Origin: an uncultured Candidatus Binatia bacterium
Lineage (GTDB): Bacteria; Desulfobacterota; Binatia; UBA9968; JAJDTQ01
NCBI GenBank assembly: GCA_964291295.2
Contig: OZ219754.1
Coordinates: forward strand, 2,240,001 to 2,304,000
Direction: 5' to 3'
Length of the DNA: 64,000 bases
The notes beneath the pieces were generated by a model. That model was not told where the DNA came from. It did not search any database and saw nothing but the letters and a program-made list of their open reading frames with translations. A program made the position numbers and the translations under genes. Positions 3,062 through 61,662 of the stretch are shown in pieces (within the stretch, counting starts at the first letter, position 1; each line of letters begins with the position of its first letter).

Positions 3062-3228
3062 CACCCCGCCGCCCGCGGCAAGACGCCCCCGGGAGTCGAT
3101 CCGTACCACGCAGCCGGTCCTGTCGGATCACTCATGAAGGGGACGGAATCATACGTTTGTGCTCTTCCGTCACCCCCAGTCCGGACATGGCGTGACGGGA
3201 GGATCAAAAAATTCGCGTGCCGGGTCCA

Positions 3229-3534
3229 TCACGCCGGCTGATACCGCCGGACGTCGATCTCATCGGCGCGTGCTCGCATCCGCGCGGCGTCGTGCCATGC
3301 CTGCATCCGCAACAGCAGATCCATGCTCACGCCGAAGGCCTTCTCGACCCGCAAAGCCATTTCCGGCGACAGCGACGCGTTGCCGTTCAACAGGTCCGAG
3401 AGCGTCGCGCGGCGCACGCCGAGAATCCGCGCCCCAGCGGCAATACTCAATCCGAACTCCTCGATCACTTCGATCCGGATAAAGGCGCCAGGATGCGAAG
3501 GGGTCATCCCGGTCTTGATGCCGTGATCGGTCAT
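3229..3534 (-). CDS. higA: HigA family antitoxin (HTH)
   Basis: HPG.FI..E, LGV.R.TLS.LLNG...LSPEMALR.EKAFG motif. TGATG-coupled to the upstream toxin. Confidence 0.9.
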   Translation of the reverse strand: MTDHGIKTGMTPSHPGAFIRIEVIEEFGLSIAAGARILGVRRATLSDLLNGNASLSPEMALRVEKAFGVSMDLLLRMQAWHDAARMRARADEIDVRRYQPA

Positions 3535-30374: not shown

Positions 30375-32217
30375 ATGGAAAGGACGAGGACATTGATGTA
30401 CAGGATGATGTACGGGAATGTGGCGACGGTCTTGTGCGCGGTGGTGCTGGCCATGGGTCTTGCGGCATGCGGCGGCAGCAGCAACAACCGGACCCCGGAC
30501 ACTCCTACCCCCCCCCCCCCCCCCCCCGCTGACGGAAGTTGAGACGATCCTGAAGGAGGCTCGGACGGCGGCCATGACGGCATCCGGCAAGGCCATGACG
30601 GCGTCAGACAACGCCGGGACGTCGGCCGATGAGGCGGAAACGGCGACCATGGGTCTGGTGTTCCACCCTGTTCCCAAGAGGGAGATGACGGCGAAGAGCT
30701 ACGCGGAGGAGGCCCGGACCGCGGCCAACATGGCGAAGGCCGAGTACGACAAGGCCAAGATGGAGTCGGACAAGGCCGCGGCCACGAGCGACGTGCGTGC
30801 GGCCGCCAAGGCCAAAGTCGCAGCCGAGGCGGCTCAGGCGAAGGCCGAGGCTCAGGCGGCGACAGCCGCCGAAAAGGCGAAGATGGCGAAGGAAGCTGCG
30901 GCCAGGGAGGTCCGGCATGTCGAGGGAATGACCTACGAGTACGGCGGCACGCGCATCACCGCCGATGCCCCCAAGGTCACCGTCAAGACCGGGGGCAAGA
31001 CGGTGGAGAGCGGCAAGGCCGGGGACATCTCAGACGATTCAACTCGTTATTCAAAGGCCCCCGTCGCCTACGTGGCGGCAACGGATACCAAGCCGGAGGT
31101 GGCTGCCCGGACGGGATTCTATGGTCGCCTAATCAAGATCGGTTCCTACACCGACTCGGAGCAGGTCGGTTCCAGCATCGACTCGGAGGAGCTGGGTTCC
31201 ACCACCGAATCGGAGCAGTTCCGTCTCTGGCTGGTGGACAAATATATCACCAACACCAAGGCGGTGAAGGCCTACCGCAAGGACAGCGGTACTAACGGCG
31301 CCGAGTTCACGGCCCCGGTCACGGCAGAAAATCCGTTCGGCTCGCGCACCGTTGACAGCAAGACCTACAAGATCATGCGGGCGGAGGGGGAGTTCTATCG
31401 TGTCGACACCGAGGAGCATACGAAATTCGACAAGACGAATGCCAATGACTGGATCAATGTGACGCACACGGACGCGAACGCGGGCGTGGGGGTCTACTAC
31501 TACACGGATAGCAGCGGGAAAAAGGTCTATCTTCTGAGCACCGGAGCCGAGGGTGCCACGGGACTCAAGTACCGTCCGTTGCTCGTCTACGATGTGCCGG
31601 ATTTCCCGGAGGCGAAGCCCTACGAGCACATGAACTTCGGCATGTGGACCAAGAAGTCAAATCGGACCCACCTTGGCATCGCATTCGTCCAGGCGCTGCC
31701 GGGCAAGGGGCCGACCCCGACCGCCAACATGCCAAGCTTCGGCACCGCCACCTACGAGGGCCATGCATATTATCAAATCCGCGCCAAGAACAACGCTCGA
31801 ACCGTCGGCGGTTTTGCTGGAAACGCAACTACAACGGTGGATTTCGAGGAAAGCACCATCAAGACGGAAATGCACATAGTGTCTATCTATCCGAATAGGG
31901 CCAAACTTGTCCACGGACATCTCATCCCTTTCGCCACACTCCACGGCACCATCGACGGGAACCGGTTCTCGGGCAGTAAAGTGACCAATGTCAACACCGT
32001 GAACGCCGTTCCCGGCGGATTCGCAAATACCGTCGAACAACTTCGTGGCATTTTGAATTTGACCCCGAGCGAAGACGGCAGCCTGTATGAGGTGAGGGAG
32101 TACAGCGGCCATTTCTTCGGACCGAACGGCGAAGAGGTGGGCGGCGTGTTCGATGTCACGTCCAAGGACAAGAAGAGCGGCGAGTTTCGCGGCTCCTTCG
32201 GTGGCCGCAGGGAGTAA
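30375..32217 (+). CDS. TbpB-like (transferrin-binding protein B beta-barrel) surface lipoprotein, frameshifted at a C20 tract (phase-OFF or assembly error)
   Basis: AAGGAG RBS and signal peptide with lipobox GLAAC-GGSS in one frame. The Ala/Lys-rich stalk and C-terminal G.FFGPNGEEVGGVF...GSFGG barrel are in the +1 frame after the poly-C. Confidence 0.75.
30508..30527 (+). repeat. Homopolymer C20
   Basis: Counted directly. Confidence 0.9.
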
Positions 32218-44482: not shown

Positions 44483-45154
44483 CTACGTGGCGCCGGCGCC
44501 AAGGTCAGGCATTTCTCCGCGTTCCAACTGGTCGAAAGCCCGGAGCACGTAACGTTGTGTGCGGTACTCGCCGAATTGCTTCATTTCGTTCTGCTTGAGT
44601 GACGGAAACGAGGAGCTTGGCGGCTCGGCATCCAGGATCCATTGCAGATCGCAACGATTCAATCCGTACATGTGCGCAAAGACTGCATCGAGTTCACACC
44701 GCAGGCGATGGCGGCGCTGCTCGTCCCAAGGGAAGGGCGGACCTTCAAAACCCAGGTCGCCGGCGAATCCAGCCATATCCTCCGACGTATAGGTCAACTC
44801 CAAGACCCGCGGCACGATGTGTTGAACGTATGGCAGGCCGACGGTGCTGTGCTTCAAGTACTCCTCTGGCGGCAATACGGGGAGTTGCTTGACGATGAAG
44901 AAGCTCATGTGACTCCCGCCAACAGATACTCTGGCGGCCCAGTCGAGTGGCAGGCTGTTCATGTTCGCCAAGACCAGGAGTGAAGCCACTGCCCTTGCCC
45001 GGTCAAAATTCATCAACGAAGTTGTATGACCTGTGCCGCTCTCAGGCAGCGAAGCGGCGAGCAGTGTCCGCTCGTTGGTCGAATTCGTGATATCGCGAAA
45101 CGCTTGAAGAACCTTCACCGGGTCGAGTCGGATGATCGGAGCACCTTCGTTCAT
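44483..45154 (-). CDS. Possible separately translated C-terminal MTase fragment (223 aa; third recognition cassette plus C-terminus)
   Basis: ATG at 45154-45152 overlaps the upstream-frame TGA at 45153-45151 (ATGA). Confidence 0.45.
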   Translation of the reverse strand: MNEGAPIIRLDPVKVLQAFRDITNSTNERTLLAASLPESGTGHTTSLMNFDRARAVASLLVLANMNSLPLDWAARVSVGGSHMSFFIVKQLPVLPPEEYLKHSTVGLPYVQHIVPRVLELTYTSEDMAGFAGDLGFEGPPFPWDEQRRHRLRCELDAVFAHMYGLNRCDLQWILDAEPPSSSFPSLKQNEMKQFGEYRTQRYVLRAFDQLERGEMPDLGAGAT

Positions 45155-48100
45155 CGCTGAGGGTCCACGACAAACGGCAAAAATCGCCGTTCGCCGATTT
45201 GTTGCGTTTGTGATGTTCCTGAAGGAGAAAACCCAAGGAACAGTATCGTTGCCGTATGGCCCACTGCGACGCTCGGCATCATGGATATGACCCCGGTTCG
45301 CTCGTCGGTCGCTCGCGCGACATCCCGCAGAGCGAGTTGCCAGCCAAGGCGGCAAGAGCGTCGAATTCGATCTGTCGATCTGTCGATCTGTCGATCTGTC
45401 GATCTGTCGATCTGTCGATCTGTCGATCTGTCGATCTGTCGATCTGTCGATCTGTCGATCTGTCGATCTGTCGATCTGTCGATCTGTCGATCTGTCGATC
45501 TGTCGATCTGTCGATCTGTCGATCTGTCGATGAACAATCCTGTGCTCACTTCGCTCTTGTCAAGTCTTTCCGCAACTTCCCTTTCCGAAACCCAGTATCG
45601 TGGAACGGCAACGGTTCCCGGGTCCGACTTTTCTTTTGCGGTCATCAGGCGGGCGTTGCCCTTCTTGATGTCACTGTCAGAGACGTTATCGAAGGTGGCG
45701 AACCGGTGGTCGTACTGATGGAACAGCTTGGCCTCGTAGAGCGGCAGATAGCGCTCATCCTCCTTCACGAACACGCTGCCATCAAGCATCCACCCGTCGT
45801 CTTCCATCTCCGTTCGTGTTCGAAAGAGCCCGGAGTCGTTGGACATGTCAAACATGCGCTGGAATGACACGCCCCACGGATTGTCTTCCGGTTGCGAATC
45901 GTTGCCTTCCCTCCAGAACACCCCGGCGCGGCGGTACATCTTGCACGCGATTTCCATGTCGCGCCGCGTGCGGAAAATGGGGCAGGTCCGAGTATTGGGA
46001 TTGAACAGCGAGAAGTCTTCCGCGCTGAGCGTGAACCGCCGTTCAGCCTCCTTCAACTGTTCGGGCTGGTGCAGGAAGAAGGCGAACTCGGCTGCGGGAA
46101 CAGGATTGGCCTCGCCGCTCAGCGTGAGGAGGCTGAACTTGATCCGACTATGAATCCCGGGAAAGATTTTCTCCCGGTTCTCGAAGTCGAACAGGCTGAC
46201 AAGCCTTTTTTCTGAAACAATGTGGCCAAAGAACTTCTTGGTCGAGTCATCGGTGGCGATGCCGGTGGGCACGATCATCCCCGCACGACCTTGCGGGTTG
46301 AGGAGTTGCAGAAATGTCTCCGCGAATACGGCATAGGTGTTGAGATCACCGATCCCGGTCAGCGGGAATCTGCCGCCGGTCCGTGCATACTGGCTGGCCG
46401 CCTCAGCGTCATGTTTTGCGGTCTCAAATTCCCGAAAGAGGGCCTTTTCAAATGGCGGAGCCTCCTCGTGGTTCAGTTGCCGGATCAATCGGTCCCGTGC
46501 GGCCTTGTTGCGAGCGGCGGCGATTTCCGAATACCGCGAGGCGAAGAACTCCTGTTCCTGCAGCTTGATGCGCTCCCACGGCGGATTGCCGAGAACTACA
46601 TCGAAACCGCCTGCCTTCATGATCTTTTCAAACGCCAGATGCCAGTGCCGGAAATTGTGCTTGTAGGCCAGTCTCTTTTTTGCAAGGTCTACGACGTCAC
46701 GGCGCTGCAGGCGGTTCTCTCTCAGCCGCAAGAGGTCCCGGGTTTGGGGCACGATCTCCAGGGTTTTCGGTGTCTTGGGCGCGAAGTACGCACCCACAAA
46801 GAGGTCGGCGCACAGGGATTCGCGGGCTTGGTCGCTGAGCACCATCTGGTACGTGTCTCGTTTGTTCTCGACGTCACGCAGCGTGTTCTCGGGCATGGCA
46901 TTGAGATCGGGGCTTGCGTTGTCGATCTTCGGCACGGGGTCGTCAGTGAACGAGAGGTATTCCTGCCCCCTCTGGCTGTTGTGTTTCTTGAGATCACGGC
47001 AAACACCCTTGTCGTCTCCCGTCAACGGTTTGTAGGCGTCGCCCGGAATGCCGTTTTCCATGATCGCCGGATCGAGGATGCCGACCAGGCTATCGCCTTC
47101 AAGGATGTGGGCATCAAGGAATGTGAGCGGTTTGCCCGGCTCGACGGCTTCCATCCACAGGGCGGTCTTGCAGAGTTCGACGGCGAGCGGATTTCGGTCC
47201 ACGCCGTAGATGCAGTGTTGCAGCACCTCGCGCAGGGCATGTTGGCGGGCGGCTTCGTCCGGGGTGTCGCCGCTCGATTCGGCGCGGACGATCTCGGTGG
47301 CGAGGCGCCGCGCCGCCGCCAGCAGGAAGTGGCCCGAACCGCAGGCGGGATCGAGGATCTTCAATTCGAGAATGGCATCCCGGGGGGGGGGGGGTAGCTG
47401 CACCGTTGGCAACGGCCTGGCGAATGACGGGATCGAGCGTTGACTTGACGAGTTCGTTCACCAGTGCGGGGGGCGTGTAATAGGAACCCGTCAACTTGCG
47501 CTCGGACCCCCTGGTCTGTTCGCGGTTGTCGTCGCCGCTGAAGGTGAATGTCCACGGCGAAGTGTCCACATGGACGACGGGTCGAAGCTCCAGCAGGCTT
47601 TCGTATACCGACCCCAACTCTTCGGTGTCCATGTCCCGGTAGTTGACGCGGGCAAGCGTTTTGTCGGAGCGGAAGAATGCGAGTGTGCGAATCGCTTCCA
47701 GCAGGTGCTCGTTGGCGATGGCCGCACCGTCGAGGTCCGGGCACTGGTCGGCCCGGAACAGCTCGTCCAGAGCCGGCAGGCCAAGGTGGTCGCGAGCGCC
47801 CTCGGCCAGCGCCCGGAAGGTGACCTGAAGTCCTTGCCAGAGATCGTGGTTCCGGTCGTAGTGCCGGCGGCGCAGGGCGCGTTCGCGCAGCCGGGAGAGG
47901 GCATAGCCTTCGGCGAACACGGCGCGCTGTTCCCTGGTGGCCTCCGGTGCGTGGAGCAGATCGCGCTCCTCGGCCACGAAGAGAAAGAGCAGGCGGTAGA
48001 CGAGGCGAAGGATCTGCTGGAAGTAGCGCTCGGGCGAGAGCGCGCTGGATTGGCGCGAGCGCGACGGGGAGTCCGTTTCCCCGGAGGAGGGGAAGCGCCC

Positions 48101-48979
48101 TTCGGGCGGGAGGTCGCCGGACTCGCGCTCTTCGCCCAGTGCGAGGTTCTGGCGCAGTTCGGCGTTGGAGGGATGCTGCAGGAAGCCGTTGCCGAGTTGG
48201 CGCAGGGAGTCGGTGACGCCGTGGCGGAGATTCTCCCGGATCCGCTCGCCGGTCTCGTGCGCCTTCTTGCGCCAGGACTCGATGATGCATTGCGACGGGT
48301 CGCCGTTGTCGGGGCGAAGGCGGCTGGCATGGGTACAGAGCCAGAGTGCGGCGAAGTCGGAATAGAGTTTCTCGTCGAAGAGGAGATCGAGGTCGGCCTC
48401 GATGCAGGCGGGCCGGGTCAGGCTCGCGTTGTCGCGCAGAAGGCGGAGCTTCGATCCGTTGGAGACCATTCCCCACAGCGCTCCCTCCTCGGCGTTGAGG
48501 TACTCCTGCATCATGCCGTGGGGTGCCCGCCCGCGTCCGTCCTGCCCGAAACGCGGATCGGCCTTGTCCAGGTCGAAATCGCGCGTCACCAGCAGCATGG
48601 GCACGGTGCCGCCGCAGGCGCGGTGCGTCAATCTGAAGACGCGGTCCTCGCGCACGATCGCTCCGGCGGCGGTGAGGTCGTCATAGCCGAGAACCTTGCG
48701 CAGGAGCGGGTCGAGCCACTTCGCGACGCCAACCCGCGACCGGGGGATGTCGCGCCGTGGATGTCGCTCGGCATAGCGTCCGTGGAGGTCGCTGGCCATG
48801 CGCCAGTACCTGGCCAGTTCTTCCCTGACGGCGAGGGATTTCGACAGCCCGTAGTGGGCACCCGTCTGGCTCGGGGCCTTGAGCGCGGCCACGGTCTGGA
48901 GGAACTCCGGCGGCAGGATGCCGCCTTCGATCTTCAATGCCGTAAATCCCCGGCTTCGCCGCGCGCTCGCCACGGTCAC
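44483..48979 (-). CDS. N6-adenine DNA methyltransferase (Eco57I/type IIL, DrmMI-like), currently split by two SSR frameshifts
   Basis: GSYYTP, motif I DPACGSGHF, motif IV GNPPW. Segments are 48979-~47395, ~47394-45151 and 45154-44483. GTGA-coupled to the SNF2 gene. Confidence 0.88.
45367..45531. repeat. Perfect octamer SSR (TCGATCTG)20 + TCGAT inside the MTase CDS
   Basis: 160 bp of perfect repeat plus 5 bp; translates as (IDRSTDRQ)n with no stop in any frame. Confidence 0.97.
47382..47394. repeat. Homopolymer G13 (C13 on the coding strand) at the MTase frameshift
   Basis: Counted directly; C12 would fuse ...ANGAAT-PPP-RDAILELKILDPACGSG in frame. Confidence 0.9.
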
Positions 48980-51855
48980 ACTCCTGCCACGGGCATGAAG
49001 ACGTAGACGCCGATGGTGTCGATGGGCAGGGCCGGGACGACGTTGTAGCGCAGGCCCCGGGTAACGCTGGCCTCGCGGATGCGGCGGTGGTCGGCGAGCA
49101 ACCGCGCCGCCCGCTCCCGGGCCACGCGCTCGAAAACCTCTTCCAGGCCCGGCAATGCGGCGAGAGCCGCCTGAACGAGATGGGTCTTCTGGCCGCCGGC
49201 CATGTTGCGCGCCGGTTCGAGGGAGAGAAGCGAAAGCGCGTCGTCGTCGGTCAGAAGCTCGGCCGCGTCGCCGCCCCGGACGGCGATCCCGAGACACTCC
49301 TCGGCCAGCAGGGACTTGAACGGCGCGTAGCGGCCCTCCGCGTCCCGCCGCTCCACCAGGAGCTGGCTGCGCAGCCTCAGCAGGTAGAGCACGGTGCGCG
49401 CGGTGACGCCGCTCGTGAACATGGCGCCGGTGCGAGCGCCGACCGCCGCATTGCCGGCGTCGAGGGCCTGTTCGGCAACGAAGTCCGCAAGCGCGGCCAC
49501 CAGCGGATGGGTGCGGTGGATATAGGCCGCTCCGGCGGGTGCGGGTTGACGGAACGCCAGCTTCGCCGAGGCGGTGAAGCCGATGGCCTCAAGGCGCTCC
49601 TGAAGCGGTTTGGGCAGGTGCGCCGCCGGCAGCCGGCACCAGCCGTCCCGTGCGTCGAGCGGTGCCCCGAGCCGTTCGGCCGCCAGGTACACGAAGCGGG
49701 CGACGTCGTCCGGTCCCCCCAGGACGGAAACGGCCTTGCGCCATTCGGGCAGCACGTCGTCCGGCCTCAGACGCTGCTGGGCGAAGACCGTCCGTGTCAT
49801 CCTGCTGGCAGCCGTCCGCCAGGCGTCGTCGACCTGGGCTTCGGTGTCTCCCAGACCGAGTTCCGTCTGGACGTTCGGGGAAAGGGGGCCGCCGTGCAGC
49901 AGGACGGCCTTCATGATGGCGTCCACCACCTTGTGGTTGTCCTCGGGCAAGGGCACGGAAACGCCGAGTTCCTTGCGGATCTTTTCGGCCTTGCGGAGGA
50001 TGACGCGCAGCACCGCGCCGTCCACGGGATTGTCCTCGCCGTAGAGCATCAGTGCGCGAACGATCGGAGAGGATTGTCCGAAGCGGTCCGCACGGCCTTC
50101 GCGCTGCTCGTGGCGGGTGGGATTCCAGGTAAGGTCGTAGTGCACCACCGCATTGAAATGGCGCTGGAGATTGACGCCTTCGGACAGGCAGTCGGTGGCC
50201 ACGAGCACCGGCGCGACATTCCCGTCAAGGTCGGCAAGAGCCTCCACGCGTTCTTCGCGCTGATCGGAGGTGAGCTCCCCGGTGACCACGGTGAGGTGCG
50301 CCTTCGCTCCCGTCAGGGCGTCGCTCAATGCTTCGCCTACGTAGTGCGCGGTGGCGATGTAGCGGCAGAACACCACCGGGCGGAAGCCGTCCCGCAGGAG
50401 TTTCCTGACCTCGTTGACAAGGGTGTCGAGCTTGGGGTCCTTGCCGGGGCCGCGCAGCGCCTCCGCGCGGTCGATGAGTTCGCGCAGCGCCGCGGTGTCC
50501 TCCACCTCGTCAACGGTGCCGGCAGGAATGCTCTCGTCAAGGGTGAGGGAGTCGTCGGCGGTTTCGTCCATCACCGTCTCGACCGCCGTATGCTCCAGAT
50601 TGGCAAGCTGCTCCTCGGCGCTCTCGCCCGTGGCGGCCTCAAGGCGGGTCCGAAGCGCAAGCGCCGCGGCCGCCGGGCTTGAGGAGACGCAGCGCAGAAG
50701 CGCCAGCGCCGCCCACCAGGACATGCGCTGTTGGAGTTTCGAGCCGCTTTCGGCACGCCGCACCATGGTTCGCGCGTAGGCGAGCACGTCGTTGACGATT
50801 CGGCCCCAGTCGCCGGTGAGCCGGTAGGTGGCCTCCCGGCTCTCCCGAGCGGGGAAGCCGGCCTGGTCCTTCCATTCGGCGATGTCGCCGCGGCGGCGCT
50901 GCACGAAATGCAGCGCGAGTTCTTCGCGCAGGCGCCGGCGTTGGCCGCCTTCGGGGGTGTGGGCCAGTCCGGCGAACTTCGGCTCCAGCAGGCCCAGCAG
51001 ATTGTGGAAGGCGGTGTCATCGCCCGAGTGCGGCGTGGCGGTAAGGAACACCATGTTTCGCCGGGGCTCGCTCTCGGCGAGACCCTTGAGCAGCTGGTAG
51101 CGCTGGTGGCGGGTATTCGTGTTCGACTGCACGCAGGCGTGGGCCTCGTCGACGATGACGAACTCCGGGCAGGCGCGCAGGAAGTCGCCGCGGCGCCGGT
51201 CCGACTTGATGTAGTCGAGGGACACCACCGTGAAGGGGTAGACCTCGAACACCGATTCGCCGGGCGGCAACCCGCGTTCGAGTCGGGCGGCCGTGCCGGT
51301 GCGTACGACTTCGGCATCAATGCTGAACTTCTCCGCGAGTTCCCGTTGCCACTGTTCGCACAGATGCGGCGGACAGATGACGGCGAACCGTTCGATCTCG
51401 CCGCGGTCCAGCAGTTCCCGCGCAATGAGGCCCGCCTCGATGGTCTTGCCGATGCCGACGTCGTCGGCCACCAGCAGCCGGACGGTGTCCAGTTTGAGGG
51501 CCATGAGCAGGGGTGCCAGTTGCCAGGTGCGCGGTTCGACATTGAGATTGCCGAAGCTCCGGAAGGGTCCGGCCCCGGAGCGGAGCTTGAGACGCAGCGC
51601 GTCGCGCAGCAGCAGGGCCGCCTCCCGGGAACCCGGCGTGTCGGGGTCGGGGAGATCGAAGGTCGCGGGTACCGGCGCCTCGGGCTCAAGCGGGAGCCAG
51701 ATGAGGGTGGCATCGTCCTCCGCACCGCCCAGTGGCCGCAGCTTCAGGAGATTCTCGCGCGTCTCCGGCAGCACCACCCATTCCCGACCACGCGCCCGGA
51801 CCAGATTCCCGGGTCTGAACTCCACCGGAGTCGGTGCCGCCAACCGTTGCATCAT
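48976..51855 (-). CDS. SNF2-family helicase (DrmD-like)
   Basis: PG.LVRARGREWVV N-terminus, ADDVGIGKT, DEAH, TATPH, SEGVNLQ and EQREGR.DR motifs. Confidence 0.9.
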   Translation of the reverse strand: MMQRLAAPTPVEFRPGNLVRARGREWVVLPETRENLLKLRPLGGAEDDATLIWLPLEPEAPVPATFDLPDPDTPGSREAALLLRDALRLKLRSGAGPFRSFGNLNVEPRTWQLAPLLMALKLDTVRLLVADDVGIGKTIEAGLIARELLDRGEIERFAVICPPHLCEQWQRELAEKFSIDAEVVRTGTAARLERGLPPGESVFEVYPFTVVSLDYIKSDRRRGDFLRACPEFVIVDEAHACVQSNTNTRHQRYQLLKGLAESEPRRNMVFLTATPHSGDDTAFHNLLGLLEPKFAGLAHTPEGGQRRRLREELALHFVQRRRGDIAEWKDQAGFPARESREATYRLTGDWGRIVNDVLAYARTMVRRAESGSKLQQRMSWWAALALLRCVSSSPAAAALALRTRLEAATGESAEEQLANLEHTAVETVMDETADDSLTLDESIPAGTVDEVEDTAALRELIDRAEALRGPGKDPKLDTLVNEVRKLLRDGFRPVVFCRYIATAHYVGEALSDALTGAKAHLTVVTGELTSDQREERVEALADLDGNVAPVLVATDCLSEGVNLQRHFNAVVHYDLTWNPTRHEQREGRADRFGQSSPIVRALMLYGEDNPVDGAVLRVILRKAEKIRKELGVSVPLPEDNHKVVDAIMKAVLLHGGPLSPNVQTELGLGDTEAQVDDAWRTAASRMTRTVFAQQRLRPDDVLPEWRKAVSVLGGPDDVARFVYLAAERLGAPLDARDGWCRLPAAHLPKPLQERLEAIGFTASAKLAFRQPAPAGAAYIHRTHPLVAALADFVAEQALDAGNAAVGARTGAMFTSGVTARTVLYLLRLRSQLLVERRDAEGRYAPFKSLLAEECLGIAVRGGDAAELLTDDDALSLLSLEPARNMAGGQKTHLVQAALAALPGLEEVFERVARERAARLLADHRRIREASVTRGLRYNVVPALPIDTIGVYVFMPVAGV

Positions 51856-54800
51856 GGCCGCTCGCTCCTTGACGATGCGCCGGGTCCGAACACCCAGGTG
51901 TATCTGGCCGCAATGCACGGCCAGGACCACCGGTCCGCCGGAAAGCGGACCACGGTATAGCCGGCATCGGCGAGGCGTTGGTCGATGGCCTCGTCGGCGC
52001 TTTCCCGCACCCGTGTCTGATGGTGCGGGCCGTCAATGTAGACCAGGGTCTGCGAAGCCGTGTAGACGAAATCGGGGCGGGTTGCATGGAGTTTCAGATT
52101 GATCTGAGCCCGGTCGGGCAGGCGGTAACCATTGGACTTGATGAACTTGAGCCACTCCTTCTCCAGGGAAGACGATGAAGCGTTCGTCAGTTCATCGTAG
52201 CTGTTGCCGTCGGTGATCCCGTACGCCAGAGCCTTTGCCGAACTGTGAATGAGCCGGCATAGCAGGCTCCGCATCTCGTCGTCCCGCCGGTCGACAAGCG
52301 GATGGTCCGGTTGGTTGTAGTAGCTCAACAGGCAGCGGTAGCATCCCGCCTCGCACTCGTCGTCGAGATTCTCAAGGTCGCCGGACCCGGACCAGTCGCC
52401 GGACTTCGATCTGTAGTGGCAGACTTCCAGCGCCCGGCGAGCGATGCGCGCAAGGGTCCCGGGGGCGTTGGCCAGACGCGTGAGCACGCCGGCGCCGCCT
52501 TCGGCGGCCTCGTAAAACAGAATCGTGGTGCGGTGGTTCCGGTCGGGCAGCGGCTCGGCGGCAAGCTCGGCCTCTTCCAGTTGAAACTCCTGCTCGATGC
52601 CGCGCTTGATGGCGTATTGCAGCGAGACTCGGGCGGTTTCGGAGAGGTGGGCGGGCGGACGAAGCATCAGAACATTGCGCGTGTCTGCCACGAACGGTGT
52701 GACGCGCTCGACTGTCTTGCCCTCGCTCACGCTGTCGTCTTCGGCATCGTCAGGGGCCTGCGAATCCTTGGTCCACTCGCCGGTATGGGGATTGACGCTG
52801 AAGCCGTAGATGGACTTTACCTTGCGCCGGCGCCAGCCGAGATTGATGCGCCAGAGCCAGGCGGCGGGGCCATAGTGCAATTCCAGCAGGGTGTCGCCGC
52901 CTTCCACGACGGCGATGCCCTGGACCCGCGCGCGACCCCCCTCTTCACTGAAGCGGAGGGTCGTGATCATCTCGTAACCTTGGCGCTGGCGCTCCTCTTC
53001 ATCCGAGGTGATGCGGTTCGCCCGCCGTGTGGACACCTGCTCGATACGGTAGAGGTTCAGGATCGAGCGCCCACCGTCGAGGCGTTGACCGCAGTTGACG
53101 CAGCGCTCGTACTCCCTCTGGTCCCCGAAGTGTCCATAGCCGCACGCCGGACAGATGCGGGCGGCCTGTACCGGAAGACGGGCCGATACCGTTACCCTGG
53201 ACGTGTCGCGCAGGGAGAGAATGGCTCGGCGCACGCGATAGGTGCTGCCCTCGTGGTAGATGATGGACTGGGGGCCGAACTCGCTGAGTCCAAGAAATCG
53301 CGGCCGGCTCAGGAACGAATCCCGGCCCACCTTCTCGCGCCGGCCGGGAACGAACGCCATCAGCGGCAGGCGCGGGAAGTTGTAGCCCGGCAGGAATCCC
53401 TGCGCGGCGAGATAGCGGTAGGTGTAGAAGTCGGAGTTCATCGTCGCCCGGTGGCCGAGCAGCAGGTTCTGCTGCGTGAACGCTTCGTCGAGCCGTGCCT
53501 TGGCCTCGCCGCGCTCCCCCTCGGCGGCGGCGGCATTGTTGATGACATCGTTGGCCAACTTCATCTGACTCGCCGTCGCGCGGAACAGCGAGCGCCAGCG
53601 CTCGAACGCTTCGTCGAAGCGGCGAGCGGCGGAGTTCATCACGGCGTCGCACCAGGTGTCCGTGTACCAGGGCGCGGCCTGGCCCCCGAGATCGGTGGCG
53701 AGCGTTGCGAGAACGCCGTGGGCGCGCCGCTGCACGTTGTCCACGACCCGGGAGGCGCCGATCTGGTCCGCCACCTCGGCGTGGAGCGGCAACGTATCGG
53801 ACTTCTCCCGATCGAGCACATCGGGCACCGATGAGCCGAGTTGCACGCCGGTCTCCCCGAGCCAGACCGCCTGCAGATGGCTGCGGATCAGGTCTTCGTT
53901 GGCCAGGTCGATGTTCGGTGGATTGACCGCGCCGGCCACCATGCGTTTCGGATCGGAAAAGAAATACTGGTCGTGCGGCGACCGCGCCGCGCAGTAGGTG
54001 ACCACCAGGGCGGGCTGGCCGCTCCGTCCCGCCCGTCCGCTGCGCTGGGCGTAGTTGGCAGGTGTCGGCGGCACGTTGCGCATGTAGACCGCGTTCAGCA
54101 TGGAGATGTCGACGCCGAGCTCCATGGTTGGCGAACAGAACAGGATGGGCAGTCCCGCCGGTTCGACCGTGCCGTCGACGACGCGTTCGCCCGCCAGCCC
54201 CTTGCGGAATCGCGCCTCGCGCTTCTCGCGGGTGTCCGCATCCACCTGCGCCGTGTGTTCCCGCGCCTCAAGCTGGTGCAGAAGACGGTCGCCGCCGTCG
54301 AGCATTCCCGACACATTCCGGTAGAGGTCGCGGAAAAACCCGTTCGGCTCTTGCGGTTTGCTGCCGGCGTCGTCCGCCAGGCGCCATTCGAGGACCGAAC
54401 TGTCGATGCGGTAGCCGGTGCGCGCGCCGTCAAGGTCCGTCGGCTCGACATGGCCGTAGGTCGTCAGCACCCCGAGGATGTCGTCCATCACGTGGTTGTA
54501 GACATCCTCGTCGAACCTGGACGGCCAATGGGGGTTGCGCTGGCCCCAGAACGGCCGGGACCGCACCCTGTGGCCGAATGCGGAGCGGTACGAGATGTGC
54601 AGAGCCCGGTAGTCCCGCCGGCGTCCCGGGCCGCCGGGCCGGGGAACCATGAAGGCGTGCGAGAACAGGCGCTCGTCTTCCGACAGGCCCCAGGGTTCCC
54701 TGAGCTCGTTGAAACTCCGGTTGCGCACCTGTTCCTGGAAGTTGGGGTCGAGGTAGATGGTCTTGATGCAGAGCCCCCGGCGCATTTGCTCCAGGAGTTC

Positions 54801-57164
54801 GCAGATGATCTCGAAGCGGCGGTCCGGCGTGATGGAGCCGAGCAGAGGATGCCGCGCACGCCATTCCTCCTCGTCCCCGCAGCACTCCCGGAGTCCCCTG
54901 TAACCGATCTTCAGGAGGTTCAACTGTTCGAGATTGGGATTGTTGATGCGCCAGCCGCGTTGCAGGTCAAAGTACATCCGGTAGCCGAGCACGTCGCGCA
55001 GCGCCTTGCGCGTGCTCTCCTTCTTGATGCCCTTGGCCTTGGGATTGGCGGCGTAGTCCTCGGGGGCGAGGTGCAGGTGCGCAAGCACGCTCCGGGTCAG
55101 GGTATCGTCGGTGAGCAGGCCGCCCTCGTCGGCCCGAATGGCCGCCAGCAACGCGCCCCGCAGCATCAGAATCTGCACGAAATCGTTGAAATGGCCGGCC
55201 TGCAGGCTCGCGTCCTGACGGTTGTCGGTAAAGGCGAGAAGTTTCTTGGTCCGTTCGTCGAGATCGGTGTGGATGAGGTGCTTGAGCGAGGACAGCGCGA
55301 GCATGGTGGTGGCGGAACTGCGGCCTTCGCTCGACAGCCCGGAGACTTTGGAGAAATCGCTCCGCTTGCCGCTTTCGTACCAGGCGTTGCACTCCGGGTG
55401 CAGGCAGAAACGGAACGATCCGGGAATGAACCAGGCGGGCAAGCCGCCGGCGGCCGCGCTGCCGGTGGTGTCCACCTGCACGGCGACGGGACGGTAGCGG
55501 CGATAATGTGACTTGAGGCGTGGTTCGTCTCCGCGGTATTCCAGCCACTCTTCCGGGTATCGGGTTTTCACATCCGCGGAATCGAACAGCCCCGACGGAT
55601 CGGGCATGAGATAGCCGAACTGGATCTCCTCGTCCTCGCTGGCGCGTTCGGACAGGTCGCGGGGGTCGAACCCCTGAGGTGTCCTGCCCGCCAACTTCGC
55701 CCACACGGGATGGTATTCCTGCCCGCAGGCTCGGCAGAAGCAGAGCGGATAGAGGCGGCGTTCGCGGTCGCCCGGCTTGAACTGCTGTCCGTTCAGGGTG
55801 ACATGGCGCTCGCCCTTTGCCTCCAGCGTCGAGTAGACGTTCCAGGATCCGCTGATGAACTGATGCAGGCGGAACGCAAAGAAGCTCTGGCCCCGCTCGT
55901 TCCGGCTCGCGTGGGCGGCCAGCAGGAACCTGGCAAGATAGTGGCCGCAGAGGTCGGCGTCGAGACCGCACTCGTTGGCCAGCGCCTGCGAGGCTTCGCG
56001 TATCGTCAGGGGCTGCGAAGTGCGTTCCAGCCTGCCGTCGCGCTCTTCCAGCCCCAGATTGTGCTCTACCCAGGCAGCGACGGGGTGTCCGGACAACGCG
56101 TCATGTGTCATGGGTGGACTGTCCGGCACGCCTTTTTCGATGGCGGCGCGAAGGTCGGCGCCGGCGGGGCCTGCCTCGGACCGGGTTACGCGTTGCAGTG
56201 TTTCGGAAACAACGTTGCCGGGATCCACCGTGTCACCGAACAGGCGGCTTGCGATGCGCGCCACCGCCATGTTCCGGCCTTCCTGCGACCCTTCCGGGGC
56301 CATGGTCGCGGAAGTGCCGATGCAGAGAAGCTGCTGGTTGAAGCGTTCCCGCACCCGGCGGACCAGCATGGCGACATCGGCGCCCTGCCGACCGCGGTAG
56401 GTGTGCAGTTCGTCCAGTACCAGGAACCGGAGTCCGGCGGCGTGTTCACGGATCGCCTTGTCGGTCTCCTGGAACCGCGTCATGACCAGTTCGAGCATGA
56501 CGTAGTTGGTCAGCAGAATGTCCGGAGGGTTGCTGGCGATGCGCTCGCGTTCCTCGTTCGATTCCTGTCCGGTGTAGCGGGCGAAGGTGACGGGCTCGCC
56601 GGCCTCGCCGTAACCGAACTGGAGATATTTCTTCAATTCCTCGCACTGACTGTTGCACAGCGCATTCATCGGGTAGACGACGACGGCGGTGATGCCCTTG
56701 CCGGCGTCGCCCGCGCGTTTGCGCCGCAGCACATCGTCAACGATCGGAATGAAGTAGGCGAGGGACTTGCCGGAACCGGTGCCGGTGGTCAGCACGTAGC
56801 TCTTCCCGCGCTTGGCGATGGCGATGGCGTCGGTCTGGTGCCGGTGCAGCCGGAGGCGCTCGCCAAAGGTGTCGCCGGCGTGCTTGAGCCGGAAGACTTT
56901 CGCGCATTCCCTGTCCAGGGTGCCGTCGGCCACGAGCTCGTCGACCCACTTGCCCGGCTTGAAGTTCGGATTCAACTGGATGAGCGGGGCCGGCCAGAAA
57001 CGGCTCTCCTTATCGGCCGCATCCACCGCGTCGGAGATGTCCTCGGCCCGGATGTGGGTGAAGCTGCGGGAAAACCGGCTGTACTCGGCGACGAGTTCGT
57101 TGCGAAATGCGAAAACGTCCATCAGTTGCCGCGATTGCCGAGATGAAACAGGGCGGTCGGACAT
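51852..57164 (-). CDS. Large SF2 DEAD/DEAH helicase with DUF1998 (YprA/DrmA-DrmB/DruE-like) and a C-terminal nuclease-like domain
   Basis: TGTGSGKS, DELH.YRG.QG, SAT, MELGVDI, QRSGRAGR, several CxxC pairs, C..GCY.CL (DUF1998), and PDF...IDGPHH (Vsr/DUF559-like). Confidence 0.9.
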   Translation of the reverse strand: MSDRPVSSRQSRQLMDVFAFRNELVAEYSRFSRSFTHIRAEDISDAVDAADKESRFWPAPLIQLNPNFKPGKWVDELVADGTLDRECAKVFRLKHAGDTFGERLRLHRHQTDAIAIAKRGKSYVLTTGTGSGKSLAYFIPIVDDVLRRKRAGDAGKGITAVVVYPMNALCNSQCEELKKYLQFGYGEAGEPVTFARYTGQESNEERERIASNPPDILLTNYVMLELVMTRFQETDKAIREHAAGLRFLVLDELHTYRGRQGADVAMLVRRVRERFNQQLLCIGTSATMAPEGSQEGRNMAVARIASRLFGDTVDPGNVVSETLQRVTRSEAGPAGADLRAAIEKGVPDSPPMTHDALSGHPVAAWVEHNLGLEERDGRLERTSQPLTIREASQALANECGLDADLCGHYLARFLLAAHASRNERGQSFFAFRLHQFISGSWNVYSTLEAKGERHVTLNGQQFKPGDRERRLYPLCFCRACGQEYHPVWAKLAGRTPQGFDPRDLSERASEDEEIQFGYLMPDPSGLFDSADVKTRYPEEWLEYRGDEPRLKSHYRRYRPVAVQVDTTGSAAAGGLPAWFIPGSFRFCLHPECNAWYESGKRSDFSKVSGLSSEGRSSATTMLALSSLKHLIHTDLDERTKKLLAFTDNRQDASLQAGHFNDFVQILMLRGALLAAIRADEGGLLTDDTLTRSVLAHLHLAPEDYAANPKAKGIKKESTRKALRDVLGYRMYFDLQRGWRINNPNLEQLNLLKIGYRGLRECCGDEEEWRARHPLLGSITPDRRFEIICELLEQMRRGLCIKTIYLDPNFQEQVRNRSFNELREPWGLSEDERLFSHAFMVPRPGGPGRRRDYRALHISYRSAFGHRVRSRPFWGQRNPHWPSRFDEDVYNHVMDDILGVLTTYGHVEPTDLDGARTGYRIDSSVLEWRLADDAGSKPQEPNGFFRDLYRNVSGMLDGGDRLLHQLEAREHTAQVDADTREKREARFRKGLAGERVVDGTVEPAGLPILFCSPTMELGVDISMLNAVYMRNVPPTPANYAQRSGRAGRSGQPALVVTYCAARSPHDQYFFSDPKRMVAGAVNPPNIDLANEDLIRSHLQAVWLGETGVQLGSSVPDVLDREKSDTLPLHAEVADQIGASRVVDNVQRRAHGVLATLATDLGGQAAPWYTDTWCDAVMNSAARRFDEAFERWRSLFRATASQMKLANDVINNAAAAEGERGEAKARLDEAFTQQNLLLGHRATMNSDFYTYRYLAAQGFLPGYNFPRLPLMAFVPGRREKVGRDSFLSRPRFLGLSEFGPQSIIYHEGSTYRVRRAILSLRDTSRVTVSARLPVQAARICPACGYGHFGDQREYERCVNCGQRLDGGRSILNLYRIEQVSTRRANRITSDEEERQRQGYEMITTLRFSEEGGRARVQGIAVVEGGDTLLELHYGPAAWLWRINLGWRRRKVKSIYGFSVNPHTGEWTKDSQAPDDAEDDSVSEGKTVERVTPFVADTRNVLMLRPPAHLSETARVSLQYAIKRGIEQEFQLEEAELAAEPLPDRNHRTTILFYEAAEGGAGVLTRLANAPGTLARIARRALEVCHYRSKSGDWSGSGDLENLDDECEAGCYRCLLSYYNQPDHPLVDRRDDEMRSLLCRLIHSSAKALAYGITDGNSYDELTNASSSSLEKEWLKFIKSNGYRLPDRAQINLKLHATRPDFVYTASQTLVYIDGPHHQTRVRESADEAIDQRLADAGYTVVRFPADRWSWPCIAARYTWVFGPGASSRSERP

Positions 57165-57514: not shown

Positions 57515-58711
57515 ATGGCTGGAAACGGAAAAGAGAAGTGGCAGGAGCCCACGGGCGAGATGCAGAAGGCGGGTTACGGGAAGTTCCTTCGTCCCAACAC
57601 CGCCTACGATACCTTCATGGAAGAGCAGGGGATCCCCGTCTACCGGGACATCGGGGTGGAGAAGGTCCAGAATCTGCCCATGAAGCCGTGGAAGCGGGTG
57701 GGGGGAAACGCCAGCTTCATCCAGCTCCTGGGGACCGAGGGGTTGTGGGGTTCCTATGTCGTGGAGGTTCCCGGTGCCGGTGCCCTGAACGCCGAGAAGC
57801 ATCTGTACGAGGAGCAGTTCTTCGTGGTGGAGGGCCGCGGCACCACGGAAGTGTGGGCCGAGGGCAGCGACCGGAAGCATACCTTCGAGTGGCAGCAGGG
57901 TTCGCTGTTCGCGATTCCGATGAATGCCACCCACCGCATCGTCAACGCCACCTCCAGCCCGGCGTTGCTGCTGGCGGGCACCACGGCGCCCAACATCATG
58001 AATCTTTTCAACAACACCGATTTCATCTTCAACTGTCCGTACGTCTTCAGCGACCGCTACAAGGAGAGCGAGGACTACTACCGGCCCAATGAGGAGATCG
58101 AGCCCGATCCGGTGCGCGGACTGGCCATGCGTCAGACCAACATCATCCCGGACATCGTCACCTGCGAGTTGCCGCTGGACAATCGCCGCTCCCCCGGCTA
58201 CCGCCGCATCGAACCGCACATGGTGGGCAACAGCTTCTACCTCTGGATCGGCCAGCACGAGACCGGCCGGTATTCCAAGGCGCACGCCCACGGCTCGGCC
58301 GCGGTGCTGATCTGCGTCAAGGGCAAGGGCTACACCTACACGTGGCCCTCCACCCTGGGGCCCACCCCGTGGAAGGATGGCAAGGCCGAAGGGGTGAGGC
58401 GGCAGGACTACGAGCCGGTGGGCATGGTGAGCGCGGCTCCCATGGGGGGCAACTGGTTCCACGCCCACTTCGGCGTCAGCGCGGAGCCGCTGCGCCTGTC
58501 GGCGTGGTTTGGCCCCAACGCGCCCGGCCGTGAGCGCGGGCGCCCGGGCGAGAAGGCCATCGACTACGGCGCCATCGAGATCAAGGACGGCGGCACCGCC
58601 ATCGCCTATCGGGACGAAGATCCGTTCCTGCGCAAGGAGTTCGAGGAGACCCTGGCCAAGGTGGGGATGAAGTCCAAGATGCCCACCGAGATATACCAGC
58701 CGGAAGCCTGA
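57515..58711 (+). CDS. Bicupin protein
   Basis: Two cupin motifs: EKHLYEE...GRG.T...P.NA.H and KAHAH....GKGY...WFH.H. Confidence 0.8.
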   Translation: MAGNGKEKWQEPTGEMQKAGYGKFLRPNTAYDTFMEEQGIPVYRDIGVEKVQNLPMKPWKRVGGNASFIQLLGTEGLWGSYVVEVPGAGALNAEKHLYEEQFFVVEGRGTTEVWAEGSDRKHTFEWQQGSLFAIPMNATHRIVNATSSPALLLAGTTAPNIMNLFNNTDFIFNCPYVFSDRYKESEDYYRPNEEIEPDPVRGLAMRQTNIIPDIVTCELPLDNRRSPGYRRIEPHMVGNSFYLWIGQHETGRYSKAHAHGSAAVLICVKGKGYTYTWPSTLGPTPWKDGKAEGVRRQDYEPVGMVSAAPMGGNWFHAHFGVSAEPLRLSAWFGPNAPGRERGRPGEKAIDYGAIEIKDGGTAIAYRDEDPFLRKEFEETLAKVGMKSKMPTEIYQPEA

Positions 58712-58713
58712 TC

Positions 58714-60210
58714 GTGGCCCAGGCGGGCAGCGCCGGTTTCACCGGTTCCGGCCGACACATCGTCGAGGAAGACGAGATCAAGCTCACCAGCGTGGGCGTG
58801 GATATCGGCTCGTCCACGTCCCATCTGGTGTTCTCGCGTCTCGAACTGAGCCAGGAAGGCACCCGCTACGTTGTCAGGAAGCGCACGGTGCTGAGCGAAT
58901 CGGAGATCCTGCTCACCCCCTACACCGACGATCTGACCATCGACACGGAGCGCCTGGGACGCTTCATCAATGCGCAGTACCAGCGCGCCGGGCTCAAGCG
59001 GGAGGATGTCGATACCGGCGCGCTGATCCTCACCGGCGTGGCGGTGCGGCGGCGCAACTCCCGGGCCATCGCCGAGTTGTTTGCCGAGGAGGCGGGCCGC
59101 TTCGTCTCGGTCACCGCCGGCGACGGACTCGAGACCACCATGGCGGCCCACGGTTCCGGGGCGGTGGCCCGCTCCGGTCGGGAAGACGCGGTGGTGCTGA
59201 ACATCGACGTGGGCGGCGGCACCAGCAAGATCGCGGTGTGCGCCGGCGGCAGGGTGCGCGAGGTCACGGCCATGGACGTGGGCGCGCGGCTGGTGGCCCT
59301 GGACGACGCCAATGCGGTGGTGCGGGTGGAAGAGGCCGGGCGGCGCCACGGCGGCGCGGTCGGCGTCGAACTGGAGCTTGGCCGGTGTCTGAGCGAGGAC
59401 GCCCTCCGGGCCATGGCCGCGGAGATGGCCGACCGCCTGTTCGAGGTGATCCACCGGCGGGAACTCGCCCCGGAGACCCGGGAACTGTTGCGGCTGCCGC
59501 CGCTGGCCTACCGGGGCGGGATCGATGCCGTCACCTTCTCGGGCGGCGTGTCCGAGTTCATCTACGGCCACGCCGGCAACGGCTTCGGCGACATGGGCGC
59601 GGTCCTGGGCCGGGAGCTGCGCCAGCGGGTGGAAGGGCTGGGGATACCCATTCTCGAGCCGGCGGCGCGTATCCGGGCCACCGTCATCGGCGCGTCGCAG
59701 TACACCATCCAGGTGAGCGGCAGCACCATCTTCATCGCACCGCCGGACGCGGTGCCGGTCCGGAACGTTCCGGTGGTGCGCGTCGACTTCGAGTGGGGCG
59801 ACGTCATCGACGGGGCGAAGGTTGCCGGCGCCATCGACCATGCGCTGCGGCGGCTGGACCTTCAGACGGGCCGCCAGCCCGCGGCGCTGGCATTCCACTG
59901 GGACGGCTCGGCCACGTTCGCGCGCCTGCAGGCCTTCTGCGGTGCGGTGGCGGCGGGCCTCAGGCCGGTGCTGGACAACGGACACCCGCTCGTGCTGGTC
60001 AACGACGGCGACATCGGCGGCATCCTCGGCCTCCATTTCAAGGAGGAGATGCAGCTCGATACGTCGATCATTTCGGTGGACGGCATCGCGCTGCAGGAGT
60101 TCGACTACATCGACGTGGGCGCGCTGATCCCGTCGTCGGGGGCTGTGCCCGTGGTCATCAAGTCGCTGGTGTTTCCCAACGCGGAACAGAACGCGGCCAT
60201 CCGCTCGTAG
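58714..60210 (+). CDS. eutA: EutA-like (ethanolamine ammonia-lyase reactivase-family, ASKHA ATPase)
   Basis: SVGVDIGSSTS, GA.I.TG, AG..LE...A..GSGA, DVGGGT, FSGGV, IRATVIGA and VPVVIKSL.F motifs. Confidence 0.75.
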   Translation: MAQAGSAGFTGSGRHIVEEDEIKLTSVGVDIGSSTSHLVFSRLELSQEGTRYVVRKRTVLSESEILLTPYTDDLTIDTERLGRFINAQYQRAGLKREDVDTGALILTGVAVRRRNSRAIAELFAEEAGRFVSVTAGDGLETTMAAHGSGAVARSGREDAVVLNIDVGGGTSKIAVCAGGRVREVTAMDVGARLVALDDANAVVRVEEAGRRHGGAVGVELELGRCLSEDALRAMAAEMADRLFEVIHRRELAPETRELLRLPPLAYRGGIDAVTFSGGVSEFIYGHAGNGFGDMGAVLGRELRQRVEGLGIPILEPAARIRATVIGASQYTIQVSGSTIFIAPPDAVPVRNVPVVRVDFEWGDVIDGAKVAGAIDHALRRLDLQTGRQPAALAFHWDGSATFARLQAFCGAVAAGLRPVLDNGHPLVLVNDGDIGGILGLHFKEEMQLDTSIISVDGIALQEFDYIDVGALIPSSGAVPVVIKSLVFPNAEQNAAIRS

Positions 60211-60276
60211 CTCCCGTCCGCCCGCACGGCCCGTCGAGGCTTGCGTCCGGGTGCGGTTGGAAGTAGAAGACGGTTC

Positions 60277-61662
<1,386 letters not shown>

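Follow-up and report, generated by a model that had tools for sequence, protein, structure and literature searches.

Two conserved stop-start overlaps probably act as reinitiation sites of a three-frame switch in armB, a methyltransferase gene of an ARMADA type I-like operon

The armB gene (44483..48979, minus strand) encodes a PglX-like/DrmMI-like N6-adenine methyltransferase and belongs to an operon resembling ARMADA type I, in a 64,000-nucleotide (nt) stretch of DNA from an uncultured Candidatus Binatia bacterium (contig OZ219754.1, positions 2,240,001 to 2,304,000 of the forward strand) that was analysed as a whole and is called the window here. The gene contains a hypermutable 8-nt repeat, and downstream of this repeat there are two places at which the stop codon of one reading frame overlaps an ATG of another. 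On the basis of a comparison with related loci and of structure models, we conclude that both ATGA overlaps are probably conserved termination-reinitiation sites of a three-frame switch in armB. An earlier reading of the same DNA, made from the letters only (the sequence-only reading), had pointed out both overlaps and suggested that the C-terminal domain could be made in every phase. The conservation of the two sites supports this suggestion, but the 223-amino-acid (aa) piece in question does not appear to be a stand-alone domain, as its first 88 residues were not confidently placed when it was modelled alone.

All coordinates given are window positions; armB and both overlap sites lie on the minus strand, and translations were read directly. 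We name the frames B, for the one that enters the repeat as assembled, A, for the one that runs to the end of the gene, and C, for the third. The repeat (45367..45531, minus strand) has an 8-nt unit, GATCGACA on the coding strand/TCGATCTG, in 20.6 copies with 100% matches (Tandem Repeats Finder), and is open in all three frames. Past the repeat, frame B as assembled reads ...GWQLALRDVARATDERTGVISMMPSVAVGHT...VVDPQR; by translation it carries C1, the canonical copy of a sequence module (WQLALRDVARATDERTGVISMMPSVAVGHTATI, 45244..45342, minus strand), and it ends at TGA 45153-45151. This stop overlaps the frame-A ATG 45154-45152 to form site 2 (ATGA, 45151..45154, minus strand; sequence context cctcagcgATGAacgaaggt). 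The ATG opens a restart open reading frame (ORF) of 223 codons plus stop (44483..45154, minus strand, stop 44485-44483), which begins MNEGAPIIR and is the lower part of the frame-A ORF 44483..45355. It holds the module copy C3 (FRDITNSTNERT, about 45100-45020) as well as the recognition region's C-terminal half, while the core of C2 (FRNITNATNRRT; 45155..45235, minus strand, frame A), a copy of the module without the conserved Glu, lies upstream and outside. Site 1 (ATGA, 45279..45282, minus strand; context catatccATGAtgccgagc) is placed inside C1 and combines the frame-C stop TGA 45281-45279 with the frame-B ATG 45282-45280, from which a relay ORF of 43 codons (45151..45282, minus strand, MMPSVAVGHT...DPQR) runs to site 2. 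Reading the sequence confirmed both overlaps, the 223-aa ORF with C3 and the C-terminus and without the C2 core, and the short ORF ending at site 2, all as first described. The three states proposed for the gene also match this anatomy, with C2 and C3 on one chain in phase A, C1 followed by a stop and a restart in phase B, and a stop within C1 followed by the relay ORF in phase C.

Overlaps of this kind are not rare. In the window armB, ATG overlaps 22% of stop triplets and ATG or GTG overlaps 40%, so that two ATGA overlaps within a single sequence amount to a chance event of about 1 in 20 (about 5%) and are unremarkable alone. Their significance therefore has to come solely from a comparison with other loci. 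A scan of species-representative genomes gave 77 loci, of which one (L035) was dropped because it is the same stretch as that of a same-genus genome (G024), leaving 76. We defined the family as the window plus 41 loci that carry a frame-B C1-type motif at the expected distance from a downstream FFIVKQ anchor; the overlaps themselves were not used for this definition. A further 24 loci with the anchor and without C1 served as repeat-free canonical homologues, which are mostly cyanobacterial and have a single module, and loci lacking the anchor or the upstream sequence were excluded from the counts. The family spans many phyla and keeps the downstream architecture of armB at 50-80% protein identity. 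A gene tree of 41 C-terminal pieces does not track phyla and mixes Pseudomonadota, Gemmatimonadota, Chloroflexota, Acidobacteriota, Actinomycetota, Rhodothermota and others, and the nearest relative of the window, at 81% identity, belongs to a different phylum. This pattern suggests that the armB lineage has often been transferred horizontally.

At site 2, [AG]TGA occupies the homologous position in 40 of the 42 loci, the exceptions being L032 and L038, and in 36 of them frame B has no earlier stop past C1. The first frame-B stop overlaps ATG in 17 loci and GTG in 20, and CTG or TTG in none; the ATG of L038 lies 8 codons upstream of the homologous site. At site 1, 31 of the 42 loci have their first frame-C stop exactly 15 codons past the C1 arginine (overlapping ATG in 22, GTG in 8 and ATA in 1), and [AG]TGA is present in 36. 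CTGA or TTGA never occurs at either site in the 42 loci. The start codon itself is not frozen, and at site 2 the gene tree implies about 10 changes between ATG and GTG, of which at least 3 are forced by well-supported branches, with another codon in only 2 of 41 rows. The sequence-only reading had named conservation of the overlaps in homologous loci as a check on its proposal, and these counts support it.

Equivalent positions in related modules served as controls. In C3 of the same loci, [AG]TGA was found in 0 of 41 at both structurally equivalent positions, and in the single module of the repeat-free homologues in 0 of 24, again at both. The residues encoded at these positions in the control modules are Val/Ile-Gly and Leu/Ile/Asn-Leu/Ile, whereas the sites themselves encode Met/Val-Ser/Asn in C2 and Met/Val-Ile in C1. 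Because the residues of C1 and C2 differ from those of the control modules, the overlaps arose by departure from the family consensus. An accidental origin of both ATGA overlaps, which the sequence-only reading had allowed for and which is plausible for one sequence considered by itself, is contradicted by the counts in the 42 loci and in the two controls, and we regard it as hardly credible.

The main rival explanation is that selection acts on the stops only. In this case [AG]TGA would be kept as a fixed stop, no ribosome would restart, phases B and C would be OFF, and the ATG or GTG would be a by-product of NTG-A combined with a hydrophobic residue. Classical phase-variable methyltransferases, as far as they are treated in PMC5909438 and PMC7383803, are indeed ON/OFF systems, and both the weak ribosome-binding signal at site 2 of the window and the poor modelling of the N-terminus of the isolated 223-aa fragment (see below) are in keeping with such an arrangement. 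However, CTGA and TTGA would be equally good stops, and they do occur at a later frame-C stop within C1, where no restart is needed (CTGA in 11 and TTGA in 3, i.e., in 14 of 41 loci). Leu codons are thus tolerated where only a stop is needed, yet they are unused at the two sites. The codon-exact placement of the stops in 36 and 31 of the 42 loci also speaks against stops alone, as do the open frames and the conservation of C1 described in the following paragraphs, and we consider this explanation unlikely, although it deserves more weight than any of the others.

The ribosome-binding signal was assessed as Shine-Dalgarno (SD) pairing computed against a generic anti-SD sequence. The mean pairing energy was -5.1 kcal/mol at site 1 (n=36) and -4.1 kcal/mol at site 2 (n=40), as compared with -2.65 kcal/mol at internal ATG/GTG codons (n=351). 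In the window, the values were -5.7 kcal/mol at site 1 and -3.0 kcal/mol at site 2, and the latter, which is close to the mean of the internal codons, agrees with the weak ribosome-binding site that had been noted at 45154 from the sequence. The SD signal is modest overall and overlaps conserved Gly codons, and the family means are below the range of strong SD sequences.

We then considered whether the frames that lead to the two sites are open by more than chance. Farther downstream, the same genes have off-frame stops at a density of 3.7% (+1 frame) and 3.1% (+2 frame) per codon. Against this background, the frame-B bridge between C1 and site 2 (about 27 codons) contains 9 stops where 43 are expected, frame C between the repeat and site 1 (29 codons) contains 10 where 45 are expected, and frame A across C1 (47 codons) contains 4 where 61 are expected, being open in 40 of the 42 loci as compared with an expectation of 23%. 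In a resampling test, the overlapping conserved protein was held fixed and its synonymous codons were resampled. Of 41 loci, 35 had an open frame-B bridge and 32 an open frame C, where resampling predicts 22.0 and 22.4, respectively. Frames B and C thus seem, by this comparison, to stay open up to the sites beyond what the overlapping protein requires, which counts against selection on the stops only.

Conservation at the protein level moves between the frames along the region. In the 26 loci of identical geometry, pairwise identity over C1 is 0.6-0.7 in frame B as compared with about 0.3 in frame A, and from C2 onward conservation passes to frame A. C1 aligns to the single module of the repeat-free homologues and retains the family Glu (TDERT/TNERT) in most loci, whereas in nearly all of them Arg, Gln or another residue takes its place in C2. 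The distance from C2 to the FFIVKQ anchor downstream is fixed at 106-107 codons (105 and 109 in two loci), and conservation in the region is highest over the C-terminal 130 residues, which are rich in invariant positions. These patterns suggest that the frame-A and frame-B products are both under selection; since frame B is constrained as a protein over C1, its product is likely to matter, and such constraint would be needless in an OFF frame. As a separate observation on C2, the loss of the near-invariant Glu (TNERT to TNRRT, TDQRT and the like) leaves the rest of the motif intact both in the window (45155-45235) and in L017-L089. C2 is as conserved as C3, and it was left unplaced by AlphaFold2 (AF2) in the frame-A protein.

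The conservation of C1 in frame B also raises the alternative that the frame-B product alone matters, i.e., that the long chain with C1 at its end works as a truncated enzyme or scaffold lacking the C-terminal half and the restart is irrelevant. C1 is complete and canonical-like, and 8 of the 37 loci with a readable upstream frame were assembled in phase B, as would suit this idea. It leaves unexplained, however, the start-capable codons at both stops, the open bridge past C1 and the relay from frame C, and it does not fit with the invariant-rich C-terminal 130 residues being the best conserved of the region; we judge it quite improbable. Programmed -1 frameshifting from B (or C) into A, in place of a restart, would be permitted by the geometry, since each step, from C to B and from B to A, is a shift of -1. 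A canonical X XXY YYZ motif is found in the frame-B bridge of just 4 of the 42 loci and at differing positions, in a search that did not extend to other slippery motifs or stimulatory RNA structures, and we give this mechanism next to no credence.

Structure models were consistent with reinitiation at site 2. We modelled a natural frame-A protein, that of L024 (922 aa, motif I to the end), with AF2 and a 95-row alignment. The model had a predicted local distance difference test score (pLDDT) of 88.2 and a predicted template modelling score (pTM) of 0.86, and only residues 607-709, which comprise the repeat-encoded stretch, the frame-A linker and C2, were below a pLDDT of 50. The confident fold resumes about 10 residues past the site-2 Met (residue 700), and C3 begins at residue 718. 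The gamma-class adenine methyltransferases CamA, M.BseCI, MmeI, M.TaqI and BrxX/PglX have a C-terminal recognition domain, and a Foldseek search with the model gave BrxX/PglX as the best match (9ewz_C, E 2.2e-14), with CamA, M.BseCI, MmeI and M.TaqI also matched. When the 223-aa piece was modelled alone, it was confident from about residue 90 onward, and residues 1-10, 14-50 and 69-88 had pLDDT values below 50 (block means 37-51). Because these first 88 residues, which bear C3, are of low confidence in the isolated piece, its function would need assembly with the long chain.

We also modelled a complex of the window frame-B ORF product (753 aa) and the 223-aa piece, using custom alignments that included single-chain homologues. 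The ipSAE score was 0.84, 0.84 and 0.85 in three runs, whereas the best of 3 controls reached 0.00; the runs shared at least 71% of contacts, and the partner pLDDT was at least 79. The calibration of the modelling tool, in which 58 of 80 solved complexes and 2 of 110 mismatched pairs reached this mark, applies only roughly when custom alignments are used. The predicted interface is formed by residues 446-601 and 689-727 of the long chain, the latter corresponding to C1, and, on the piece, by residues 50-98 and 117-189. The piece has a C3 of its own (about residues 15-49), of which only residues 20 and 23 take part in the interface. According to these models, in phase B C1 would occupy the module slot, with the C-terminal piece docked on the long chain. 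A sequence search of the Protein Data Bank with both ORF products returned no match and no like complex.

A hypermutable tract is present at the same armB position in every family member with upstream sequence. By locus, the unit is 4 nt in 15 cases (and one gapped assembly), 5 nt in 11, 7 nt in 2, 8 nt in 2 and 11 nt in 1, with AG x12 (2 nt) in 1 and a homopolymer of 11-14 nt in 5; among the family loci no unit is a multiple of 3, and the units also differ widely in sequence. In L017-L089, the tract lies about 10-170 nt upstream of the match start. The repeat itself appears to have been swapped repeatedly among relatives while the downstream switch stayed. Of the 37 loci with a readable upstream frame, 16 were assembled in phase A, 8 in phase B and 13 in phase C. 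L046 and L048 share an AGCC unit at 9.8 and 19.8 copies, respectively, which places them in different phases, and they are 91% identical over 870 nt downstream, and the same-genus genome G024 has the same operon with CGAC x37.5 at the same repeat site. With a repeat that is perfect, lies within the ORF and has a unit that is not a multiple of 3, the window armB is a candidate simple sequence repeat (SSR) contingency gene.

The assembled window allele is broken a second time. A C13 tract (47382..47394, minus strand) lies directly before the S-adenosylmethionine (SAM)-binding motif I of armB and shifts the frame between the first about 630 codons (ORF 47114..49297) and the ORF 45151..47412, so that armB as assembled is spread over three frames, with breaks at C13 and at the 8-nt repeat; a C12 tract would join both ORFs. 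No tract was present at the C13 position in any other family locus compared. A Logan contig of sequencing run X1 spans C13 unchanged and without a gap, although X1 may be the source sample, and contigs of run X2 stop on either side of the tract and are not informative. One could take these breaks as signs of an assembly artefact or of a decaying pseudogene, in which repeat-length errors or a dead gene had left the overlaps behind, the more so as the majority of loci stem from metagenome-assembled genomes, errors are common in the lengths of repeats and homopolymers, and L030, L032, L038 and L078 have extra stops. This is very improbable, as the architecture past the repeat is independent of the repeat length in the assembly and persists over many phyla at 50-80% protein identity, frame A is open over C1 in nearly all loci, and the X1 contig reproduces C13, if perhaps from the same sample.

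Several further tracts and one unusual allele were observed in passing. The C13 tract and a C20 tract (30508-30527, plus strand) are the only homopolymers of at least 9 nt in the window. The latter lies near the 5' end of the ORF 30418..32217 (plus strand, 599 aa), after a lipoprotein-like signal (...LAACGGSS...), and encodes a Pro run; this ORF may be another phase-variable gene. Extra homopolymers elsewhere in armB are found in the relatives L029 (G12 at position 2315) and L086 (C12 at position 3476). In L078, an apparent extra C1-like copy with extra stops lies at about 2600-3300, between the repeat and the usual C1, and may represent a rearranged or decaying allele.

We propose the following mechanism for the switch. 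The hypermutable repeat would lie in a loop of the target recognition domain (TRD)-like C-terminal region, where gain or loss of units would move ribosomes among the three frames. Frame A would give a single chain to the end of the gene, comprising the linker, C2, C3 and the C-terminus. Frame B would carry C1 and end at the [AG]TGA of site 2, where the ATG or GTG would bring ribosomes back into frame A, some 10 residues ahead of the folded C-terminal part. Frame C would end at the [AG]TGA inside C1, where the ATG would reopen frame B as the 43-codon relay ORF to site 2. In this way all frames would be funnelled into frame A, and the 223-aa piece would be made either fused (phase A) or as a separate chain (phases B and C), with a long chain that carries C1 in phase B and one without a module in phase C. 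The states might differ in the dose of the C-terminal piece, in chain connectivity, or in the module copy that fills the slot. What the analysis shows is the layout of the sites, how well it is conserved, the contrast with the control modules and, in a model, that the two chains fit together; we infer that ribosomes would restart at the sites, that the chains would assemble in cells, and that the states would differ in how much ArmB is made, how its chains are connected or how active it is, with consequences for defence or methylation.

A number of points weigh against termination-reinitiation at the two sites. The loci are kin, and the counts and p-values given above overstate their independence, so that the figures are descriptive and not probabilities. 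Both positions would accept Met or Val as hydrophobic residues and a TGA in the next frame forces NTG, and part of the [AG]TGA signal could therefore reflect selection for stops alone. SD pairing at site 2 is weak in the window, and the 223-aa piece by itself is poorly modelled over its N-terminal part. A passing score of the complex is to be expected for two halves of one fold, and what the model suggests is complementarity rather than assembly in cells. The window allele is also broken upstream by C13, so that the chain in its current frame as assembled is without the N-terminal third. Finally, if each phase were to lead to an assembled enzyme, the effect of the switch is not apparent.

Nevertheless, it is tempting to extend the proposal of two reinitiation sites to a three-state "frame funnel", in which any non-triplet repeat picks the frame and, through overlapping coding that is conserved separately (C1 in frame B, C2 and C3 in frame A) and a restart relay of two steps, each frame leads to an assembled methyltransferase built in its own way: a fused enzyme whose slot holds C3, a two-chain enzyme whose slot holds C1, or a two-chain enzyme that receives C3 in trans. 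Such a device would tune subunit dose or exchange the recognition module, and with it methylation or defence behaviour, rather than turn the gene OFF, and would have spread horizontally across many phyla while its repeat was replaced again and again. We put this forward tentatively, as a possibility that stops somewhat short of being probable.

The genes around armB place the putative switch in a defence operon. ArmB matches Pfam Eco57I (3.8e-23) and N6_Mtase as well as PADLOC DrmMI (2.4e-48) on both upstream pieces, and its start is joined to the preceding gene, armA, by a GTGA overlap at 48979-48976. The 290-aa frame-A product has no match to a Pfam or NCBIfam family, and PADLOC gave just a weak Type IIG match. 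armA (48976..51855, ORF 48976-51930, minus strand) encodes an SNF2/BrxHII-like helicase of 984 aa with matches to Pfam SNF2-rel_dom and Helicase_C, PADLOC DrmD and BrxH, and NCBIfam DrmD (1.1e-96, below the cut-off of the model) and RapA (1.4e-34). It is joined to armC by an ATGA overlap at 51855-51852 with AAGGAG upstream, so that the claim of the sequence-only reading that other genes of the operon are coupled by ATGA/GTGA holds at both junctions. armC (51852..57164, minus strand) encodes a YprA-like DEAD helicase of 1770 aa (Pfam DEAD 1.7e-26, MZB (DUF1998) 6.3e-12 and Helicase_C; PADLOC DruE), and its C-terminus carries a DUF559 (Vsr-like) domain (Pfam). The order on the minus strand is therefore YprA-like helicase, SNF2 helicase and methyltransferase, with no GajB-like ArmD, and the gene downstream of armB, on the opposite strand, encodes an MscS-type channel. 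ARMADA type I has been described as having YprA-like, BrxHII-like and PglX-like components in this order (bioRxiv 10.1101/2025.09.15.676423), and by its helicase, ArmA, ArmB and gene order the operon of the window is assigned to this type. Upstream of the operon, a 985-aa ORF (58606-61563, minus strand) has no match in Pfam, PADLOC or NCBIfam, and about 1.4 kb without an assigned feature separates it from armC.

Repeat-driven phase variation is usually taken as an on/off device. In armB, all three frames seem to carry selected information and are linked by conserved stop-start overlaps, and if the restarts work, one gene would compactly yield three enzyme forms without recombination. The putative switch is located in ArmB, which, together with its NPPW motif, has been reported as needed for defence in E. 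coli ARMADA II (bioRxiv 10.1101/2025.09.15.676423; 2026 mBio PMC13463889). It would bear on how defence systems are tuned or avoid self-damage, on the maintenance of overlapping reading frames, and on the annotation of metagenomes, in which gene callers split repeat-broken genes. The family offers about 40 natural alleles distributed over all three phases, which makes the idea directly testable.

The operon of the window has the same gene order and domain content as ARMADA type I in the preprint. In the main text of the preprint the words "frameshift" and "phase" are absent, and repeat-driven frame switching, triplicated modules or stop-start overlaps in armB are not described there. The mBio article notes armB as the variable gene among E. 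coli islands, and no mechanism for this variability was seen in the part of it considered here. A search of the literature on phase-variable methyltransferases, DISARM/DrmMI, phase variation in symbionts, and reinitiation, with supplements and subscription papers outside its scope, found no such architecture. SSR phase variation of a defence methyltransferase is known, and what we did not find described are the downstream stop-start overlaps, the triplicated modules distributed over frames and the split enzyme, as deduced here from sequence comparison.

ATGA and GTGA overlaps are a means of translational coupling between the genes of an operon. The junctions of this operon use the same couplings as the two sites in armB, which we count in favour of reinitiation there, but the armB overlaps lie within one gene and would be used only in the two phases that leave frame A. 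In phasevarions, which involve Type III mod and Type I hsd genes, SSRs within the genes for N6-adenine methyltransferase or specificity bring about reversible switching, as would be the case here (PMC5909438, PMC7383803). In the sections of these articles that concern it, this switching is ON/OFF or a recombinational change of specificity, with no three-frame architecture or conserved reinitiation described, and the hosts are host-adapted pathogens, whereas the armB family is found in environmental genomes of many phyla. The pglX gene of S. coelicolor is also a PglX-type defence methyltransferase gene switched by length changes of a simple repeat within the gene, in that case a G tract (PMC4365076, citing Sumby and Smith 2003). 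Unlike the window armB, it is presented there as an on/off switch, and that account does not describe conserved alternative frames, restart sites or a split enzyme. licA of H. influenzae has a non-triplet CAAT repeat within the ORF and starts in more than one frame, so that a product is made in more than one phase, as proposed for armB (PMC2212159). The licA starts, however, are described as lying upstream of the repeat at the 5' end of the gene, where they decide only whether one protein is made, whereas those of the window armB lie downstream of the repeat, overlap the stops of other frames, and would give a split enzyme with alternative modules.

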